Positions 8,044 through 16,032 are shown, counted from the first letter of the stretch. The stretch: DNA of 32,000 bases from Geotalea daltonii FRC-32 (GCF_000022265.1 NC_011979.1:3540001-3572000); one strand, 5' to 3'. Notes: generated by a model from the sequence alone, not told the origin. Program-made: numbers and translations.

Positions 8044-9294
8044 TTAACGCCACACTCCACGGGTATCTATCACCACCTTCTCCTTGAGAAGTTCCTTGTC
8101 TATGGTTTTAAATTCATCGTGGTCGACCAGAACCACCAGGATGTCCGCCTCGCGCAGCACCTGGGACAGCTCATGCAGCTCCATGCCCGCCGATCCATTG
8201 CATACATTGGGTTCACAGGCCATCACCCTGCCCACTCCGCTTGAAATGAGCCCTCTGGTAATTTCCATTGCCGGCGACTCGCGCAGATCGTCGATATTGG
8301 CCTTGAAGGACAGTCCCAGGCAGCCGATAACCGGTTCCTTGAACCGCTCCGCCTTGGCCTTTATCTTGTTCATGACCCAGTGGGGCTTGTGATCGTTCAC
8401 CTCCCGGGCGGTACGAATCAGCCGCGCCTCTTCCGGCGCAGCGGAAACCACGAACCACGGATCGACGGCAATGCAGTGCCCACCCACCCCCGGTCCGGGA
8501 TTGAGAATATTTACACGGGGATGGCGGTTAGCCAGCTCGATCACATCCCAGACATTGACCCCCACCCGGTCGCTGATCAGCGACAGCTCGTTGGCAAAGG
8601 CAATATTCACGTCCCGAAAGGAATTTTCCACCAGCTTGGACATCTCCGCCGTCTTGCTGTCGGTGAGGAATATTGTCCCGTTGCAGAAGGTGTTGTATAA
8701 ATCTCTGGCCTTTTCGGCCGAAGCCTTGTTAATGCCGCCGATGATCCGGTCATTGTCCACCAGTTCGCGGATTATGTGCCCCGGCAGCACCCTTTCCGGG
8801 CAATGGGCGATGAAGACCTGGGGGGAATGGTTGTTGGTACCCGGATGCTGCGCCAGGTCCGGCCGCAGCTGCTTGACTATCTCACCGATCGCCTCGGTGG
8901 TCCCCACCGGCGACGTGGATTCCAGAATGATGAGACTTCCTTCCCGAAGAAAAGGCGCAATGGCCCGCGTAGCGGCATCCACGTAACTCACATCCGGGAT
9001 CTTCAGATGGGCCTGTTCCCCGTTTTTGAATGGAGTAGGCACGGCGATAATGAAGGTATCCGCCTCCTCGGGGACCAACGATGCCCGGAGATTGCCGCTG
9101 TTGACGGCAGAACGGACCAGGATGTCCAGATCGGGCTCGACAATGTGTATCCTGCCCGAATTGATGGTGTTGACCGCCTCCTCGTTTATGTCCACCCCCA
9201 CCACCTCATGCCCCTTTGTGGCGAGCATGGAAGCAGTGGGCAAGCCAATGTAGCCAAGACCCATGACGACAATTTTCTGACGGTTCTTTTGCAT
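8044..9294 (-). CDS. wecC: UDP-N-acetyl-D-mannosamine dehydrogenase
   Basis: Near-colinear similarity to E. coli WecC as I remember it (IVVMGLGYIGLPTA…, INSGRIHIVEPDL, ESTSPVGTTE, CPERVLPG, AEMSKLVENSFRDVNIAFANEL, NRHPRVNILNPGPGVGGHCIAVDPWF, LIRTAREVNDHKP, DDLRESPA). The ATG at 9294 is preferred over the GTG at 9300. Confidence 0.9.
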   Translation of the reverse strand: MQKNRQKIVVMGLGYIGLPTASMLATKGHEVVGVDINEEAVNTINSGRIHIVEPDLDILVRSAVNSGNLRASLVPEEADTFIIAVPTPFKNGEQAHLKIPDVSYVDAATRAIAPFLREGSLIILESTSPVGTTEAIGEIVKQLRPDLAQHPGTNNHSPQVFIAHCPERVLPGHIIRELVDNDRIIGGINKASAEKARDLYNTFCNGTIFLTDSKTAEMSKLVENSFRDVNIAFANELSLISDRVGVNVWDVIELANRHPRVNILNPGPGVGGHCIAVDPWFVVSAAPEEARLIRTAREVNDHKPHWVMNKIKAKAERFKEPVIGCLGLSFKANIDDLRESPAMEITRGLISSGVGRVMACEPNVCNGSAGMELHELSQVLREADILVVLVDHDEFKTIDKELLKEKVVIDTRGVWR

Positions 9295-9451
9295 AGGCAC
9301 CCCATATTTAATTGGAAGTATCTAACAAAAGTTACCACCAGATCATTCATTGTAAAGTTATAACTTTTAAAACATCTTCTCGCTTCGTTCAACGTGGCAG
9401 CGCCTCATTGGGCTCTGGAGTTTATCGGAAAGATTCTGTTCATCAATAGGC

Positions 9452-9481
9452 TTGACCATAAGGTTTTAATTAGATTATATT
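9452..9481 (+). promoter_or_regulatory. Candidate sigma70 promoter reading into the cassette array
   Basis: TTGACC (9452-9457), an 18-nt spacer, then TATATT (9476-9481). It lies upstream of the first cassette ORF. Confidence 0.3.
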
Positions 9482-9620
9482 TTACCGACATTCACTTCTC
9501 AGTGCTGGTCAGGGGGCCTTCTGGCGAAGCAACATATGTATTTAGATGCTTTTATATACAACCATATGCACCCACTCTAACTGGTCAATGTGTAGTTGAA
9601 TCAGAAAAAGGAAAAACAGC

Positions 9621-10145
9621 ATGGGAAACGCGGAAAAAATACCAAAAAACATCCAAGTAATCACTGCTGACGGAAGTTTGCGAATTCACTACACGTGGCT
9701 AACCATTTACACCATTAGATTTCTTCTTGCTGCGATGGTCTGGGACGGTTTTCTGCTGTGGTTTTTAGTTGCCCAAGTAGCAGACTCAAGGAATCCGACA
9801 TTTCATCCAGTACTTGTTGCCCTTGGAGTTACCGGAGTGCTCATTACGTATGTGGCACTTGCACATGTCGTAAACACAACTGAAATCCGAGTTAATAAAC
9901 ATGACTTGGAGACAAAGGTTGGTCCGTTCCCATGGCCAGGAAATAGTATGTTCCGGGTCGATAGCATTTTGAAATTAGAATCAGGAAGAGGTACAGGGCG
10001 GCTAATGCCGAGGTGGTCCGCAAACGTGAGTGTAAATGATAGGTGCGGCGAGAAGAAAATGCTGATTACAAACCTTGCCCGAGCGGATCAAGCAGAATAC
10101 ATCGTTGCAATGATTTCGGAATTCCTCAGGGAATCAAGAGCATGA
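9621..10145 (+). CDS. Cassette ORF 1: two-TM membrane protein of unknown function
   Basis: AAAGGAAAAA lies upstream of the ATG. Two hydrophobic helices are present (IRFLLAAMVWDGFLLWFLVA and VLVALGVTGVLITYVALA), followed by a soluble C-terminal domain. Codon usage is AT-rich, unlike the flanks. Confidence 0.55.
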   Translation: MGNAEKIPKNIQVITADGSLRIHYTWLTIYTIRFLLAAMVWDGFLLWFLVAQVADSRNPTFHPVLVALGVTGVLITYVALAHVVNTTEIRVNKHDLETKVGPFPWPGNSMFRVDSILKLESGRGTGRLMPRWSANVSVNDRCGEKKMLITNLARADQAEYIVAMISEFLRESRA

Positions 10146-10147
10146 AG

Positions 10148-10203
10148 ATTCAAGCAGGAAGATGCACCGATCTGACAGCCAGTGATCTCCCGGCCCGTTG
10201 TAT
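10148..10203 (+). repeat. attC-like site 1 (degenerate outer core)
   Basis: The outer 7-mers ATTCAAG and GTTGTAT pair at 5 of 7 positions; the left core reads AAG, not AAC. The inner stem 10157-10167 / 10182-10190 has 9 bp, with two bulged bases (A10160, G10164) in the 5' arm. Confidence 0.4.
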
Positions 10204-10218
10204 GAAATGGAGAACAAA

Positions 10219-10452
10219 ATGAATATACTACGAGTGCTGTCAGGTGTTGCCTTTGTTTGCCTTGGAGTAATTGTAATCAAATTTGGCGACAAAGATGTCA
10301 CAAAGAGAAGTAACGAAAGAGGAGTAATTACAAGAGTTTTCTCCCATACCCACCTAAATCCAAAACTTCTTAAATTGCAGAGGTCAGTAATCAAATGGGG
10401 TTTCGGCCTCGTTGCGCTCTGGTTTGGGCTTTGGCTGATAGTCGATTTATAG
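10219..10452 (+). CDS. Cassette ORF 2: small two-TM membrane protein
   Basis: Track ORF 10198..10452. The ATG at 10219 is preceded by GGAGAA at a 5-nt spacing. Two hydrophobic helices are present (VLSGVAFVCLGVIVI and WGFGLVALWFGLWLIV). Confidence 0.45.
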   Translation: MNILRVLSGVAFVCLGVIVIKFGDKDVTKRSNERGVITRVFSHTHLNPKLLKLQRSVIKWGFGLVALWFGLWLIVDL

Positions 10453-10507
10453 GCGAAAAAAAGCAGGAGTAGGCATAAGAGGCGGAAAACAGAATTTAAC
10501 CGAAAGA

Positions 10508-10547
10508 GGGAATTTGACAGAGGGAATTTGACAGGGGAATTTGACAG
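10508..10547. repeat. Three tandem copies of GGGAATTTGACAG abutting hairpin copy 1
   Basis: Copies at 10508-10520, 10522-10534 and 10535-10547. The last copy runs directly into the hairpin arm. Confidence 0.9.
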
Positions 10548-10618
10548 TGTCAGGTCTACACCTTGACAGAAAAGGATTAAATTAGTGTCAAGGTGTAGAC
10601 CTGACACATATTCTTCCT
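10546..10618. repeat. 73-bp repeat, copy 1: perfect 22-bp-stem hairpin
   Basis: GTGTCAGGTCTACACCTTGACA (10547-10568), a 17-nt loop GAAAAGGATTAAATTAG, then TGTCAAGGTGTAGACCTGACAC (10586-10607), followed by ATATTCTTCCT. It is 100% identical to 13683-13755. It is bounded by ATTTAAC (10494-10500) and GTTAGCA (10619-10625). Confidence 0.95.
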
Positions 10619-10675
10619 GTTAGCATCTGAAAACCAGCGCATATGAAGTAATCCATCTCCAGCCAAGAGAATGAC

Positions 10676-11677
10676 ATGAAACTACCCTCAAGAATTAAGC
10701 AGCATAAAGCCGAGTCAGATTCCTACGCCATTTTGCTGTACAAGTTGAAAAACGTCGGCATTTTCAGAAACTTAACAGAAAATGATTATGGGATTGATTT
10801 TGAGATTGAGGTCCTTAAGGGAGATCAACTAACCGGAAGATATGTCAAAGTACAAGTAAAATCATCAGAAGATTTAAAGATAAGAAAAAAAGACAAGGTG
10901 CCAACAGTAGGAGGGATAAAGGATACAACTCTCAATTATTGGGCTGAGCTAAGCTTAAGGGTCAATGTTCTAGCGTATGCAGTTGATTTAAAAAATGAGA
11001 ATATATACATCACCAAGCCCATGTTTTGGCAAGCAACCAAACTCATAGACGGATCAAAGAGAAGCAAATCAATCGAATTTCTTCCTGTGGACCAATATCA
11101 CTCAGAGGTCGCTGGCGCATTAACATATGCATTTGCACTTGCTCCTACCGCATCTGACATTATTCACAATCACAAAGTAGCATTAAAGCACCTTATGGAG
11201 TTCATAGAGTTTTACGTAGGCACTTTCCATTATGATATCCATCTACCAACAGATGAACCCGACGTCTTTCGATCATTCCTGGATGTATGCCGGATACTAA
11301 TGTGGGACATGAGATATGACAAGTCTGCCGAACTCTCAGAAGAGGAGCAAAAATGCTTACTTAGATACGAGTATTGGGCCAAGCAGGGAAACCTCATTTA
11401 TGACGAAATTCCTCATTATGTTCTACAGAAGCCTATGAAGTTTTTAATGCCTCTCTTTATCAAGTCGGTAAAACGTTACAACACAAGGGTTTTAGATGCC
11501 AGATACTACTGGTTATATAATGACTGTAATTACCTTCGGCTTGTATATGAATGTGTAATGCCTGAAGATCTTGATTCCCATGAAGGAATTATGAGATGGG
11601 GGTATGATCTTCGTATTAACGGCATCAAAAAACCAGCTGACTTTTACATGTTTCTAGCTGAAACTAAGAAATGCTAA
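10676..11677 (+). CDS. Cassette ORF 3: DUF4365 (PD-(D/E)xK restriction-endonuclease-like) domain protein with an uncharacterised helical C-terminal domain
   Basis: The N-terminus (…ESDSYAILLYKLKNVGIFRNLTENDYGIDFEIEV…GRYVKVQVKSS…) matches my memory of the DUF4365 signature (D-x-G-I-D … E … Q-V-K-S). The coding sequence is very AT-rich. Confidence 0.65.
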   Translation: MKLPSRIKQHKAESDSYAILLYKLKNVGIFRNLTENDYGIDFEIEVLKGDQLTGRYVKVQVKSSEDLKIRKKDKVPTVGGIKDTTLNYWAELSLRVNVLAYAVDLKNENIYITKPMFWQATKLIDGSKRSKSIEFLPVDQYHSEVAGALTYAFALAPTASDIIHNHKVALKHLMEFIEFYVGTFHYDIHLPTDEPDVFRSFLDVCRILMWDMRYDKSAELSEEEQKCLLRYEYWAKQGNLIYDEIPHYVLQKPMKFLMPLFIKSVKRYNTRVLDARYYWLYNDCNYLRLVYECVMPEDLDSHEGIMRWGYDLRINGIKKPADFYMFLAETKKC

Positions 11678-11736
11678 CAATCGGCGGCAGACGGTCTTCG
11701 CTGACGTTCCGCCGCTGCGCCGAAGCCCCGTTGGCA
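11672..11736 (+). repeat. attC-like site 3
   Basis: TGCTAAC (11672-11678) overlaps the TAA stop and pairs 6/7 with GTTGGCA (11730-11736). The inner stem 11681-11694 / 11712-11723 has 12 bp, with bulged G11687 and A11691 in the 5' arm. The loop is 17 nt. The site is GC-rich against AT-rich ORFs. Confidence 0.6.
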
Positions 11737-11747
11737 CAGGAGAAATA

Positions 11748-12512
11748 ATGTCAGATCTGAATTCAAATATTACCAATCGTATCTCTCAGCTACTTGGCGC
11801 TCTTTTTATATTATTGGCAGTGTCAGCACTGATAGCTGCACTAAATGAAGGTGTATGGCATGAGTTGGGCATGAGCCTTGTCGGCGGCCTTATAGTGTTA
11901 TTTATAGCAGTGTTTATAGCTGACCAACTGATGCAGAAATATAACGAAGAAAAATTCAATCCTCACCGAGATTATGTTTTTGCGATAGTTCAGAAGGCAA
12001 TAACGGAGTGTTATTTACGAGTTATTCCCCCAATGAAAAAATCAGAGTTACATCATGCAGAATTTGGTAAGTATTCCTCGGGTTATTATGATTTGCCAAG
12101 TTTAAATGGCACGTACAGAGAGCATATTCAGGAAACTCTTCGAATCTCGTCCCAAAACCTTGACGGCTTCGTCAAAGCTGTTGATATTTCCCGAGCCTCT
12201 TTGGATGTGTTTTTTGAAAAAACAAAGGAAATTAGTCACCACTTTTTTACAATATTAGACCCAGAATTACTCGAATATTTATTGCGTCTAGAAGATGCCC
12301 ATAACGAATTAGATATAGCTGTTATGGACTCCGGCATTAGCTTAGATACAAAGGTATCACTGTATTCGTTTTCTTTTATGAACACATTAATTGAAATGCA
12401 TAAGCTCCAACAACTACTCTTGTCCAGGGCCACAAAACGCTTAACAATGGAAGAATGGAAAAGAGATATTAGTGCTAAAGTGGACAGGTATACAGCATTG
12501 TGTGGGAAATAG
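11748..12512 (+). CDS. Cassette ORF 4: two-TM protein with a cytoplasmic helical domain, function unknown
   Basis: A strong AGGAGA lies 5 nt upstream of the ATG. TM helices are LLGALFILLAVSALIAAL and LVGGLIVLFIAVFIA. Confidence 0.55.
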   Translation: MSDLNSNITNRISQLLGALFILLAVSALIAALNEGVWHELGMSLVGGLIVLFIAVFIADQLMQKYNEEKFNPHRDYVFAIVQKAITECYLRVIPPMKKSELHHAEFGKYSSGYYDLPSLNGTYREHIQETLRISSQNLDGFVKAVDISRASLDVFFEKTKEISHHFFTILDPELLEYLLRLEDAHNELDIAVMDSGISLDTKVSLYSFSFMNTLIEMHKLQQLLLSRATKRLTMEEWKRDISAKVDRYTALCGK

Positions 12513-12514
12513 TG

Positions 12515-12607
12515 GGGCAACGCGAAAATGATGTGCCAACAGGCCCTAGGACACCGACCAGGGTTGAAAATCGCCCCAGTGCGGGTCAAGGGCGCAACCC
12601 GTTGTGC
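12515..12607 (+). repeat. GC-rich structured spacer; possible long or degenerate attC
   Basis: GGGCAAC (12515-12521) pairs partly with GTTGTGC (12601-12607). I could not find a canonical bulged stem. It contains several short GC hairpins and an internal CAAC…GTTG pair (12537-12566). Confidence 0.25.
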
Positions 12608-12620
12608 GAAGGGAACTTTA

Positions 12621-13058
12621 ATGCGTAAGAAAGTTAGAAAAGAATTGGATGACAAGTCTCGGCAGTGCAGAGAAGCGAGCACTTCAACAATATTAAAGCC
12701 TACGGTCGTCGTCGAAACGACCGATGCTTACGAATTTACTGCTGCAATTAAGTTGCTGGAAAAAGAAGGAATACCATTTTGTACAGAGAAAGAGTACACG
12801 GACGATCTTGTTGAAGGCAGGAGCTTTCTTGGTCCGTATGCATGGAAGATAATTGTTGAGGACGAGCTGCGGCAGAAGGCAACCAGATTAATAGACGAAG
12901 GTGGAGTTAGCGTAGTCATTGACGCTCCAGATGAAGGTGACGAAACCACGATTGAACGAGGGTTGGGAAAAAAAGATACTTCATATTGGATTGCAATCTT
13001 TTACTGCGGTCTAGGTTTGCTATCGCTTGGAATGCTTCTGAAAAATCTCTTTGACTGA
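12621..13058 (+). CDS. Cassette ORF 5: small tail-anchored protein with a DUF2007-like domain
   Basis: Track ORF 12528..13058. The first 31 codons lie in the GC-rich spacer, so the ATG at 12621 (AAGGGA upstream) is preferred. …TTDAYEFTAAIKLLEKEGIPFCTE… resembles DUF2007. A C-terminal TM helix is present (YWIAIFYCGLGLLSLGMLL). Confidence 0.45.
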   Translation: MRKKVRKELDDKSRQCREASTSTILKPTVVVETTDAYEFTAAIKLLEKEGIPFCTEKEYTDDLVEGRSFLGPYAWKIIVEDELRQKATRLIDEGGVSVVIDAPDEGDETTIERGLGKKDTSYWIAIFYCGLGLLSLGMLLKNLFD

Positions 13059-13067
13059 AATCCGAAA

Positions 13068-13127
13068 GCACAACCAGGCGGCGGCACACAGACGCTAACG
13101 CGTTGGTGCGCCCCCGAACCGTTATGC
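13068..13127 (+). repeat. attC-like site 5
   Basis: GCACAAC (13068-13074) pairs 6/7 with GTTATGC (13121-13127). The inner stem 13077-13095 / 13100-13115 has 15 bp plus one mismatch. Bulged G13084, A13088 and G13091 are all in the 5' arm. The loop is a TAAC tetraloop. Total length is 60 bp. Confidence 0.6.
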
Positions 13128-13157
13128 CGCCCAAAAAGACAGAAAGGCGAAAAAAAC

Positions 13158-13550
13158 ATGTGGTACCAGTTCTGCGAAAACCCACGCTCGATCACAGAGA
13201 TCTTTGGTAATGAACCTGTAGGCAATCCGGTTGAAATACACAGCGTCCGACTTCATCAAGATGGTCCATTGATTCAGCTTCAAATCGAACTGCCGACGTT
13301 CCCGGAGAAACAACAACCACGATGGCCTATTGGTGCAAACACACTTCAGGTTGAACTCGATCTCTGGGGAGTAACCAGCTTTGAGCAGGTTGGCTGGGGA
13401 ACGAGCAATATAGGAGTGCTGAGTCTTGAAAGAGAGGATGCTCTCAAATTCACATTTGTATCTAACCATTCAAAGTTCAGTGGAAGCTGCATTGTGGCTC
13501 GTATTGGCAAGGTGAGTGCTTATATCAACGGTAGTAAAGAGAAGGTATAA
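13158..13550 (+). CDS. Cassette ORF 6: Imm50-like immunity protein (orphan)
   Basis: The pattern …VEIHSVRLHQDGPLIQLQIELPTFPEKQQPRWPIGANTLQVELDLWGVTSFEQVGW…ARIGKVSAYING resembles the all-beta Imm50 family of polymorphic-toxin immunity proteins (recalled, not searched). Confidence 0.5.
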   Translation: MWYQFCENPRSITEIFGNEPVGNPVEIHSVRLHQDGPLIQLQIELPTFPEKQQPRWPIGANTLQVELDLWGVTSFEQVGWGTSNIGVLSLEREDALKFTFVSNHSKFSGSCIVARIGKVSAYINGSKEKV

Positions 13551-13612
13551 CATCGACGCAGACTCTGACGCGGCGAACAACGCCGCGCAGGTCACGCCGC
13601 GACACGTTGGTC
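13545..13612 (+). repeat. attC-like site 6
   Basis: GTATAAC (13545-13551) overlaps the TAA stop. The right core is GTTGGTC (13606-13612). The inner stem 13561-13575 / 13581-13593 has 13 bp, with bulged T13564 and A13568 in the 5' arm. The loop is AACAA. Confidence 0.5.
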
Positions 13613-13623
13613 GGGCTCTGAGC

Positions 13624-13689
13624 CAAATTTGGTAGTGTCACAAATTTGGTAGCAAATTTGGTAGTGTCATAGCAAATTTGGTAGTGTCA
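13624..13689. repeat. Tandem CAAATTTGGTAG(TGTCA) units abutting hairpin copy 2
   Basis: Units at 13624-13640, 13641-13652 (truncated), 13653-13669 and 13673-13689. Each full unit contains the outermost 6 nt (GTGTCA) of the hairpin's left arm. Confidence 0.9.
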
Positions 13690-13755
13690 GGTCTACACCT
13701 TGACAGAAAAGGATTAAATTAGTGTCAAGGTGTAGACCTGACACATATTCTTCCT
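13683..13755. repeat. 73-bp repeat, copy 2: perfect 22-bp-stem hairpin
   Basis: Identical to 10546-10618, with arms at 13684-13705 and 13723-13744. Both copies have the same loop orientation, so they form a direct repeat 3137 bp apart. Confidence 0.95.
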
Positions 13756-13800
13756 CCTGACACATATTCTTCCTCCCATATTCTTCCTCCATATTCTTAC
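13739..13800. repeat. Telescoping tandem duplications of the right hairpin junction
   Basis: TGACACATATTCTTCCTCC occurs twice (13739-13757 and 13758-13776). It is followed by the truncated CATATTCTTCCTCC (13777-13790) and then ATATTCTTAC (13791-13800). Confidence 0.9.
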
Positions 13801-13857
13801 TCAGAAATATTCATCCATCTTGTCGCATGTCAAGGCAGCCCCCTTAGAACTTATTTC

Positions 13858-16002
13858 CTACACCATTAGGCATTGTCTGAATTGTTTTTCCCGTACCTTT
13901 TCCTGAACCGTAGCCGTGCCGTTTATGTACCTGGAATAGACCGCTAGCGCCCAGACCGGGAAGAACAGGCTGTAACCGTGGTAGCGCAAGTAGAATACCC
14001 GCGGGAAACCGGTGCCGGTAAATTGCTTCTCGTTCCAGCCGTTGCAGTAGCTTTCCGTCAAATATCGTACACCGTTCCTGACGGCGCTGTGACGCCACTC
14101 ACCGGCCGCCATCAGCGCCATCAGCGCCCATGATGTCTGTGAGGCGGTGCTGGCGCCGCTTCCGGCCAGGGATGGATCATCATAGCTCGCGCAGGTTTCC
14201 CCCCAGCCGCCGTCGCTGTTCTGGCAGGAGATCAGCCACTCCACCGCTTTTCTCACATACGGGGCATCCATGTTCTCACCGGCCTGGTGCAACCCGGAAA
14301 GTACCGACCAGGTGCCATAGATGTAATTGACACCCCATCGTCCGAACCAGCCGCCAAACGGCTCCTGCTCCTTCTTCAAATAGGCGATGCCGCGGGCAAT
14401 CGGTGGGTAATCAGGGCCGTGCCCCAGCATCCCCATCATCTCTATACATCTGCCGGTCAGATCGGCGGTGCTGGGATCCAGCAAGGCCCCGTGGTCGGCA
14501 AAGGGGATATCGTTCAGGTAGAAATAGTCGTTATCCACATCAAAGGCCCCCCAACCGCCGTCCGTGCTTTGCATCCCCTGCACCCACCTGATCGCCCGTT
14601 CAATCTTTTCACGATATTCCGGTTTTTCCAGCGCCCCGGCACGGAACAGGCTCATCAGTACTTTTGCTGTATCATCCACATCGGGATAGCGGCTGTTTTC
14701 GTACTGGAAGGCCCACCCTCCCGACTCCAGCCCCGGACATTTCTCCGACCAGTCTCCCGGTGTGGCAATCTGCTGGCTGAACAGCCATTTGATGGCCCTG
14801 TCCGTTACTCCCGAGTTGTTTTCGGCATAACCTGACTCACACAGGGCCGACAGACTCATGCAGGTGTCCCAGATGGGGGAGTTGCAGGGCTGACAGAAAC
14901 TGAACTCCGTGTTGCCGGCTGTATCGGTCAGGTAGGTTGGAGATAGTTCAGGCGCTGCTGAAGAGTTGTCTATGGCAATGCCGCCACTGTCATCATCCAT
15001 GGGGATGGTGCCTGTCTTCAGATTGCGGTGCACCATCAGGTTATCGACCGCCTCCAGGCCGCGCAAATAATCGGCATCGTCATCGCTGCACCCCAGCGTC
15101 TTCAGGGCCATGACTGCATTGGCCATAGCCGGGTAGATGGCGCCAATGCCGCCGTCTCCCTGCATTCTGGCCCGTGTCCAGCGTTCAGCCTCGGCCAGGG
15201 CATGTTGTTTGATCCGGCCGGGGACCAGGTGCATGGTGCGTTTCAGCACCCGGTCCAGGGCGATGAAGACGTTTTTGCGCCAGGCATGGTGACGGAACTT
15301 ATCCAGATGGACCAGCATGTCCGGCGGAGTGGTGAACAACTCGGTGATCCCCTCGTTGTATTGCAGACGGCAGATCGGTTGTGTAGCGTAAAGGATAAGT
15401 AGCGGCACAATTACAGTCCGTGACCAGTAGGCTACCTTGTTCAGGTGAAAGAAAAACCAGCGCGGCAGCAGCATGATCTCGATCGGCATGGCCGGTGCGG
15501 TATGCCACGGGATCTGACCGAAGGTAGCCAGGGTGATGCGGGTGAATACGTTGCACTTGGCCGCCCCGCCGAGGGAGAGAATCAGCTGGCGCGCCCTGAC
15601 CATATGGGGAGCGTTCTTGTCGTGCCCCAGCAGCTTGAGGGCAAAATAGGCCTTAACGCTGGCACTGATATTGACATTGCCGTCAACGGCATACAGCGGC
15701 CAGCCGCCGTCAGGCAGCTGGCGCTCCTGCATGTAGGCGGCCAGCCGCTCGGAAATCTCCGGATCGATCTCACGGCCGATAAAGCGCTGCAGCATCACGT
15801 ACTCCGCAGGGATGGTCACATCCGCCTCCAGGTCAAAGACCCAGTGTCCGTCGTCCTGCTGCTGCCCGGCCAGCTGTGAAGCAGCCACACTGGTCACTTT
15901 TTCCAGATCGGCAGCGTCCATGATGGCGCAGGTTTCGCTCCCCCTGGCTTGGGTGGTTTTGCCCCCCTCGATCACACTGAAAGTACCTTTATGCTTATTC
16001 AT
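13858..16002 (-). CDS. shc: Squalene-hopene cyclase
   Basis: Contains the DVDDTA catalytic motif (codons at about 14665-14682), repeated QW-type motifs (…DGGW…) and CQPCNSPIWDT. The ATG at 16002 (MNKHKG…) has a GGAGG 5-6 nt upstream, so it is preferred over the ORF-track start at 16023. Confidence 0.92.
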   Translation of the reverse strand: MNKHKGTFSVIEGGKTTQARGSETCAIMDAADLEKVTSVAASQLAGQQQDDGHWVFDLEADVTIPAEYVMLQRFIGREIDPEISERLAAYMQERQLPDGGWPLYAVDGNVNISASVKAYFALKLLGHDKNAPHMVRARQLILSLGGAAKCNVFTRITLATFGQIPWHTAPAMPIEIMLLPRWFFFHLNKVAYWSRTVIVPLLILYATQPICRLQYNEGITELFTTPPDMLVHLDKFRHHAWRKNVFIALDRVLKRTMHLVPGRIKQHALAEAERWTRARMQGDGGIGAIYPAMANAVMALKTLGCSDDDADYLRGLEAVDNLMVHRNLKTGTIPMDDDSGGIAIDNSSAAPELSPTYLTDTAGNTEFSFCQPCNSPIWDTCMSLSALCESGYAENNSGVTDRAIKWLFSQQIATPGDWSEKCPGLESGGWAFQYENSRYPDVDDTAKVLMSLFRAGALEKPEYREKIERAIRWVQGMQSTDGGWGAFDVDNDYFYLNDIPFADHGALLDPSTADLTGRCIEMMGMLGHGPDYPPIARGIAYLKKEQEPFGGWFGRWGVNYIYGTWSVLSGLHQAGENMDAPYVRKAVEWLISCQNSDGGWGETCASYDDPSLAGSGASTASQTSWALMALMAAGEWRHSAVRNGVRYLTESYCNGWNEKQFTGTGFPRVFYLRYHGYSLFFPVWALAVYSRYINGTATVQEKVREKQFRQCLMV

Positions 16003-16032
16003 GTTTTTCCTCCATAACGCCAAACATTTACA

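Follow-up and report, generated by a model that had tools for sequence, protein, structure and literature searches.

What is the AT-rich island that separates a wecC-like dehydrogenase gene from the squalene-hopene cyclase gene (shc) in the chromosome of Geotalea (formerly Geobacter) daltonii FRC-32 (4,304,501 bp, accession CP001390)? The stretch of DNA analysed here (the window, 32 kb) holds this island at positions 9301-13857 (Geob_3228-3232), with a GC content of 0.37-0.48 at 9501-13500 against 0.55-0.61 in most flanking windows, and with six open reading frames (ORFs), all on the + strand (Table 1). An earlier interpretation, the sequence-only reading, described it as an array of attC-bounded gene cassettes devoid of an integrase and inserted between two housekeeping genes. 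GC windows and ORF calls confirm the island and its six ORFs, each of which translates into a protein identical to one of this strain, and Pfam domains confirm the nature of both flanks. The segment 10619-13612 very probably consists of four integron-type cassettes forming a CALIN, a cluster of attC sites lacking integron integrase in the IntegronFinder definition (Cury et al. 2016, PMC4889954), with attC sites of a divergent type. The term CALIN is used because the cassette array comes without an integron integrase in the window. ORF1 and ORF2 (9621-10452) are part of the AT-rich island and are not demonstrably cassettes.

The ORF4 cassette and its counterpart in soil contigs

In integrons, the bottom strand of an attC site folds into an imperfect hairpin made of an R box (AAC/GTT), a spacer, and a stem. 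The integrase IntI, a tyrosine recombinase, cuts the R' sequence between G and TT, and "TT-ORF-attC-G" units are excised as circles and reinserted.

In the island, the evidence that carries the cassette reading comes from cassette 2 (11731-12601), which encodes ORF4. The 90%-identity cluster of the ORF4 protein includes a 173-aa protein from soil metagenome contigs (L105-L110), in which the cassette recurs at about 94% nucleotide identity. The source of these contigs is an uncultured soil Desulfuromonadales bacterium, the AccD of which is 96-98% identical to proteins named as coming from Desulfuromonadaceae or Pelobacteraceae metagenome-assembled genomes (MAGs). Their chromosomal context differs from that of the window, with genes for peptidase M1 ... 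TatC, TrpA, and AccD. Aligned to these contigs, the window is 85% identical at 11676-11782 and 93.8% identical at 12023-12603. On the left side, identity is 14/27 in the ORFs and 39/57 in the preceding attC, and rises to 50/53 from the GTT onwards (11730-11782); a 68%-identical variant of attC 1 stands in L105 (9926-9989) behind a different, HNH-encoding ORF. On the right side, identity is complete (35/35) to the end of ORF4, amounts to 81/89 across the palindrome up to 12603, and falls to 28/54 with many gaps directly after the GTT at 12601-12603. From this GTT, the window reads GTTGTGC... and L105/L107 read GTTAGGC..., and different ORFs come next. The neighbours of the cassette thus differ on both sides, a DUF4365 gene being replaced by the HNH gene upstream and a DUF2007-like gene by a SnoaL_2 gene downstream.

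Because the homology breaks on both bounding GTTs and the neighbours differ, cassette 2 is identified as a mobile integron cassette. The junction comparison shows the pattern of a classical cassette with the crossover at G|TT, one that has moved between arrays in two Desulfuromonadales genomes. The integrase-less, CALIN-type interpretation of the sequence-only reading fits the window. The same homology reveals a fourth attC site behind ORF4 (12515/12534-12607, R' GTTGTGC), which was missing from the earlier list of sites.

Besides these junctions, ORF4 differs in length between the two arrays. An extra in-frame segment of 240 nt (11783-12022), absent from the contig cassette (254 aa in the window, 173 aa in the contigs), encodes a hydrophobic N-terminal stretch and constitutes an indel within a mobile cassette.

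Anatomy of the attC sites and the covariance-model test

The AAC and GTT cores are invariant in all four attC sites, which share the orientation of the ORFs. Stop codons are located inside R'' or at most 10 nt away (R'' overlaps the stop in two sites), and a ribosome-binding site and the next start codon are found 12-31 nt past each R' GTT; both traits had been described correctly from the sequence. The four sites are spaced by 332-798 nt. The degenerate positions of R'' RYYYAAC and R' GTTRRRY are obeyed just partly. Near-complementary outer 7-mers, formerly claimed for every site, are found in attC 1 and attC 3 (6/7 each), the count being 5/7 (or 4/7) in attC 2 and 4/7 in attC 4. Taken alone, an R-box heuristic (AAC...GTT with at least 5/7 complementarity) returned 180 candidates per strand and was rejected as useless as a sole criterion.

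Candidate sites were folded as single-stranded DNA, with z-scores computed against shuffled sequence. The bottom strand of attC 3 takes the textbook shape of an attC, an R box of 7 bp being separated by an unpaired 4x4 spacer from an interrupted stem of 14 bp, with a free energy (dG) of -17.8 kcal/mol (z -2.99), 6.4 kcal/mol better than that of the top strand. The attC 4 site folds into a 19-bp stem with three single-base bulges, all located in the R''/L'' arm, which is the 3' arm of the bottom strand (z -2.63). In attC 1, two single-base bulges occur, both in the R''/L'' arm, and the energy is not unusual (z -0.84 and -1.18). The attC 2 fold (12534-12607) shows a mixed bulge placement, its bottom strand being 1.8-3.0 kcal/mol more stable than the top. 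Overall, the bottom strand is the more stable one in 3/4 sites, by 0.6-6.4 kcal/mol, as it is in 36/39 real attCs. The proposal that every bulge lies in the R''/L'' arm therefore stands for attC 1 and attC 4; it does not for attC 3, which has none, or for attC 2. Bottom-strand folding, put forward in the sequence-only reading as a check, singles out attC 3 and attC 4, leaves attC 1 unremarkable, and gives no support to a weaker site proposed at 10148-10203. This last site carries AAG rather than AAC, gains no stability over shuffled sequence when folded (z -0.15 and +0.59), is not matched by the covariance model described below, and is at best a decayed attC.

A search with an attC covariance model had also been proposed as a test. 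Training sites were drawn from a pool of 80 metagenomic loci that encode IntI1 or a 70-100% identical relative, and from six plasmid integrons. Sites of attC shape were harvested on the cassette side of the integrase by a fold-based detector, used mainly for this harvest; at strict settings, it recovered two of the island sites. The model, R1, was built from 33 aligned non-redundant attCs adjoining IntI1-like integrases. The training alignment has clean ends and holds 19 base pairs in 18-33 of the 33 sequences, thirteen of these pairs being present in at least 30. Both strands of the window, amounting to 64 kb of searched strand, were scanned with filters off.

The three best matches of R1 in the window are attC 1, 3, and 4, on the + strand, over the full model length and with ends exact to the base; they are the three strong sites of the sequence-only reading, returned at its own coordinates and in the orientation of the ORFs, although with weak scores (Table 1). 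Nothing else in the window exceeds 8 bits, and on the opposite strand the same three sites give no match at E <= 10. Since two matches of at least 12.4 bits occur in 97.5 kb of related genomic DNA, the island should hold about 0.07 and in fact holds three (Poisson P about 6e-5), against none in the 27 kb of the window outside it. Real attCs beside integrases score 26-73 bits on the right strand and 10-18 bits on the wrong one. Within the terms of this model, R1 shows specificity of place, ends, and orientation, and it shows the sites to be distant from proteobacterial attCs.

Outside the window, a match of 15.6 bits at L017 3689-3751 (- strand) was rejected as an attC, its ends reading ACCTGAC...GCAGGT, without AAC or GTT. 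This 63-nt palindrome has an interior close to proteobacterial attCs (..CCAGCGGACGG..CCGCTG..) and stands upstream of two genes that, from visual inspection of their translations, resemble a ccdAB pair; the hairpin motif described below is present on the same contig. The palindrome may be a decayed or variant attC.

In the soil contigs that share cassette 2, small ORFs follow one another on one strand, each with an AAC...GTT palindrome behind it (L105 900-4400 and 7600-10746, L107 1-1600). One of these palindromes, behind a small ORF at L105 1645-1695, is matched by R1 with 19.7 bits; others are located at 2449-2520 and 9926-9989. No integrase is found in the 10-kb flanks retrieved, and the soil array probably represents a further CALIN or the distal portion of an integron.

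Hairpin repeats, putative insertion junction, and arrival of the block

The four-cassette block is bracketed by two direct repeats of 81 nt (10538-10618 and 13675-13755), 98% identical and 3137 bp apart from start to start, each flanked by short tandem duplications. Both contain a perfect 22-bp inverted repeat, and it is this unrelated hairpin that follows ORF2; the sequence-only reading had assigned a GC-rich palindrome to every ORF. The left repeat stops 1 nt before a GTTAGCA (10619), and the right one starts 9 nt after attC 4. Because the repeat ends adjoin GTT 10619 and attC 4, a pre-insertion site can be reconstructed, in which two hairpins would lie about 70 nt apart with a GTT between them (CATATTCTTCCTGTTGGTCGGGCTCTGAGCC). 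A 132-nt frame at the left hairpin (10494-10625, ATTTAAC...GTTAGCA) was considered as a long attC and discarded, with an R box of 4/7 and arms of 46 vs 12 nt.

The four cassettes would have entered at this secondary GTT between two hairpin copies (...CATATTCTTCCT-G|TT-GGTCGGG...), either one by one or as a multi-cassette circle, with an integrase supplied in trans or since lost. Once inserted, they would be expressed by read-through from a promoter upstream of ORF1. A sigma-70-like match is present there (9452-9481, 10/12 positions), and terminator-like sites are absent from 9200-13900 (0 vs 4.1 expected), with no T tract after any stem. Read-through is proposed because of this lack of terminator-like sites, and the array would be transcribed from the leader.

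The 22-mer of the hairpins, GTGTCAGGTCTACACCTTGACA, is also found in eight MAG contigs (L011-L018), of which one is labelled Dongiaceae and the other seven Desulfuromonadales, Geobacteraceae, or deltaproteobacterial. Its copies are singlets, inverted doublets (loops of 4-25 nt), or arrayed in tandem with a period of 85 nt. Tandem duplications of 12-19 nt, specific to each locus, flank most copies and in several cases take in the outer 6-8 nt of the motif; several contigs carry toxin-antitoxin-like genes nearby (judged by eye from ORF translations). Outside MAGs, the only exact copies found are the two window hairpins, and the copy number is low. The motif showed neither a target-site duplication nor a match in Rfam or in the literature, and no RAYT transposase was seen with the hairpin elements. 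Near-palindromic, extragenic, and present as singlets and inverted hairpin doublets in several related genomes, the motif resembles REP/REPIN sequences; it differs from them in its low copy number and in the lack of a visible RAYT. To our knowledge, locus-specific flanking tandem duplications are not a described REPIN feature. The 22-mer hairpins might be a preferred secondary landing site for integron cassettes in Desulfuromonadales, a structured and attI-independent target, or their direct copies might make of the block a 3.1-kb unit that loops out and moves by recombination between hairpins; we consider an active role of either kind quite unlikely. If true, hairpin-hairpin looping would be a way to move whole cassette arrays without an integron platform, and the flanking tandem duplications would be traces left by recombination or slippage recurring at the hairpin.

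Several points weigh against the identification of 10619-13612 as a four-cassette CALIN. The junction evidence covers one cassette only, cassette 2, and the action of an integron integrase on these sites is predicted from sequence. With R1, the island sites reach just 12-15 bits, similar to real attCs on the wrong strand, each match has singly an E-value of 0.15-0.73, and attC 2 (12515-12607) is not matched. The attC 3 fold is symmetric, with zero bulged bases, and the R box of attC 4 pairs just 4/7. The spacers are asymmetric (2-4 nt on the R'' side, 4-7 nt on the R' side), unlike those of 39 real attCs, and the net-unpaired measure, positive in 31/39 of the latter, is zero or negative in the island sites. 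Finally, the IntegronFinder 2.0 catalogue of complete RefSeq genomes includes several Geobacter genomes and has no G. daltonii row (none between GEAU and GEKA); the standard model therefore probably does not call the array, and no integrase was called either, assuming that the genome was in the data set. Some of these traits would suit palindromes that are ordinary intergenic structures (REP-like elements, RNA stabilisers, or terminators) of a horizontally acquired operon, the AAC...GTT cores being coincidental: the R1 scores are weak, with single E-values near 1, the folding of attC 1 is not significant, and the geometry departs from that of canonical attCs. However, the stems lack the T tract of terminators, the four palindromes do not share one sequence as the members of a REP family do, and AAC...GTT is oriented with the ORFs in each of them. 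Furthermore, the top three R1 matches coincide to the base with the proposed ends, and the shared ORF4 unit breaks on GTT at both ends, between different neighbours. The junction analysis largely refutes such a coincidental origin, which is very improbable.

The route of arrival can be debated separately. A fragment of a foreign integron array may have arrived passively, without a local integrase, for instance by homologous recombination of a resident hairpin with one carried on incoming circular or linear DNA; the 81-nt repeats would then be scars, and the attCs inert relics. That the repeats bracket exactly the four-cassette block fits this route, as do the breaks of assemblies at the repeats (Logan contigs with the exact left-flank dehydrogenase protein stop at the first hairpin), the presence of the hairpin motif in accessory regions of other Desulfuromonadales genomes, the lack of an integrase in the window, and the missing catalogue entry. 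The ends of the block tell otherwise, the left one being the GTT 1 nt past the repeat and the right one the GTT of attC 4, and insertion by IntI predicts both. Nor is a hairpin motif seen beside the related array of L105/L107, although the pattern scan that gave no match covered an earlier set of loci, without L105-L110. Passive arrival is unlikely, and its units must still be integron cassettes; it differs from the CALIN formed by integrase-mediated insertion in the arrival route only.

Gene content, surroundings, and comparison with known systems

Table 1. Features of the island and of its two flanks, in window positions.
Feature	Position	Strand	Details
Left flank, UDP-N-acetyl-D-mannosamine/UDP-glucose dehydrogenase family gene (wecC-like)	8044-9294	-	Pfam UDPG_MGDP_dh_N, central, and C domains, E 1e-50 to 1e-21
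AT-rich non-coding leader	9301-9620	+	sigma-70-like promoter match 9452-9481 (TTGACC-18-TATATT)
ORF1 (Geob_3228), 174 aa, membrane-like, no family	9621-10145	+	sole member of its own 90%-identity cluster
Weak site ATTCAAG...GTTGTAT of the sequence-only reading, at best a decayed attC, unsupported	10148-10203	+	AAG; bottom-strand dG -5.7 kcal/mol
ORF2, 77 aa, no family	10219-10452	+	ORF prediction, Pfam search
Hairpin element A: GGGAATTTGACA x3, perfect 22-bp inverted repeat 10547-10568 / 10586-10607 (17-nt loop), CATATTCTTCCT	10506-10618	+	
GTTAGCA, putative left junction (G|TT) of the cassette block	10619-10625	+	repeat identity ends at 10618; fits the other GTT-type cores
Cassette 1, ORF3 (Geob_3230), 333 aa, DUF4365 restriction-endonuclease-like domain	10676-11677	+	Pfam PF14280, E 6.7e-23
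attC 1 (65 nt), R'' TGCTAAC (stop TAA inside), R' GTTGGCA	11672-11736	+	R1 15.4 bits, E 0.15; R box 6/7
Cassette 2, ORF4 (Geob_3231), 254 aa, no family	11748-12512	+	whole cassette 11731-12601
attC 2, R'' GGGCAAC (12515) or TGCCAAC (12534), R' GTTGTGC at 12601-12607	12515/12534-12607	+	homology breakpoint
Cassette 3, ORF5 (Geob_3232), 145 aa	12621-13058	+	weak DUF2007, Pfam PF09413, E 4e-4, under the curated cut-off
attC 3 (60 nt), R'' GCACAAC, R' GTTATGC	13068-13127	+	R1 13.7 bits, E 0.36
Cassette 4, ORF of 130 aa, orphan Imm50 immunity protein	13158-13550	+	Pfam PF15594, E 6.4e-15
attC 4 (68 nt), R'' GTATAAC (stop TAA inside), R' GTTGGTC	13545-13612	+	R1 12.4 bits, E 0.73
Hairpin element B: CAAATTTGGTAGTGTCA-type repeats, identical perfect hairpin 13684-13705 / 13723-13744, CATATTCTTCCTCC x4	13621-13803	+	
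Right flank, squalene-hopene cyclase (shc)	13858-16023	-	Pfam SQHop_cyclase_N and C, E 1e-119 and 1e-140

The cassette proteins are diverse. PADLOC links the DUF4365 protein of cassette 1 weakly (E 2e-6) to the restriction-endonuclease-like domain found in Argonaute-associated effectors, and this protein could be a defence-related nuclease travelling as a cassette. The cassette 3 protein is named by NCBI as a DUF2007 domain protein. For the Imm50 protein of cassette 4, just two homologues are known (P0129 and P0130; 68% and 61% identity), too distant for a junction analysis. The closest one (68%, from a Blastocatellales MAG) is encoded alone between sulfatase-maturase and cyclase genes and is followed by a short GCATAAC...GTTGCAC palindrome (L111 10393-10465); this gene may be a single inserted cassette. 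Orphan Imm50, DUF4365 nuclease-like, and function-unknown proteins are what we take to be typical contents of chromosomal cassette arrays.

As the sequence-only reading had stated, no tyrosine recombinase accompanies the array: the Phage_integrase domain is absent from the large ORFs of the window, and tblastn with IntI1 over the window returns nothing beyond chance (E 8.9). The layout of a complete integron, with intI, attI, and Pc adjoining the array, is not seen in the window, which displays that of a CALIN (two or more attC sites, spaced by less than 4 kb, and no integrase nearby). A distant-mode search of the island against the plasmid collection gave no match. Rfam and tRNA scans of the window found nothing, although the empty Rfam scan says little on attC because Rfam holds no attC family. 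Leon & Roy (2010) place a group IIC-attC intron of CP001390 (intron-encoded protein YP_002536457) within a cassette array, which, judging by the protein accession, may be at a different locus.

The shc gene product of the window shares 72-76% identity with named Geobacteraceae homologues. In the four relatives examined, the island is absent; the TetR-shc pair is kept, followed by unrelated DNA downstream of shc (91%, 80%, and 72% identical shc in three of them), and none of the four has wecC next to shc. Because of this unrelated DNA, the island is not considered vertically conserved, and the synteny between wecC and shc that the sequence-only reading had named as the finding to speak against it does not exist in these relatives. 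What comes directly after shc varies from one examined relative to the next (L008 12150-16000; L004 12145-13400; L113 10166-11600); L008 has there another AT-rich series of small ORFs, in this case lacking GC-rich palindromes. In Geobacteraceae, insertions or rearrangements seem to recur at the 3' flank of shc.

CALINs are regarded as cassette reservoirs, open to mobilisation in trans by integrases, and they have been catalogued almost wholly with one covariance model, biased to proteobacterial attCs. The present array illustrates concretely a divergent class of attCs among metal-reducing soil bacteria, because it scores poorly with a class-1-type model and is apparently absent from the catalogue, and yet one of its cassettes has moved between arrays. 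It suggests that cassette reservoirs are undercounted outside Proteobacteria. Beyond its divergent sites, it is an ordinary instance of a well-described element.

Compared with known CALINs, the island shares the close spacing of its attCs (at least two less than 4 kb apart), their single orientation, and their location behind small promoterless ORFs. It is likewise chromosomal, located between housekeeping genes with no nearby intI, and its contents are mostly function-unknown. It differs by its divergent attCs, which score far under class-1-type attCs with R1, by the missing IntegronFinder 2.0 row, and by the unrelated hairpin repeat that brackets the block. The sites resemble, judging from sequence alone, the attCs ("59-base elements") of class 1 and chromosomal integrons: they are imperfect palindromes of 60-93 nt with AAC/GTT inverse cores, a bottom strand that folds better, a stop in or beside R'', and a G|TT crossover shown by homology breakpoints. 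In contrast, the proteobacterial L'' motif (..TCAAGCGGAC..) is absent from them, their spacers are asymmetric, one site is bulge-free, and one R box pairs only 4/7. According to Loot et al. (bioRxiv 10.1101/2022.09.11.507474), integron integrases also insert cassettes at secondary genomic GTT sites. Although its pre-insertion site is reconstructed rather than observed, the island resembles the insertions described in that work, as an array located outside any attI with a putative left junction at a bare GTT (10619) in non-integron DNA.

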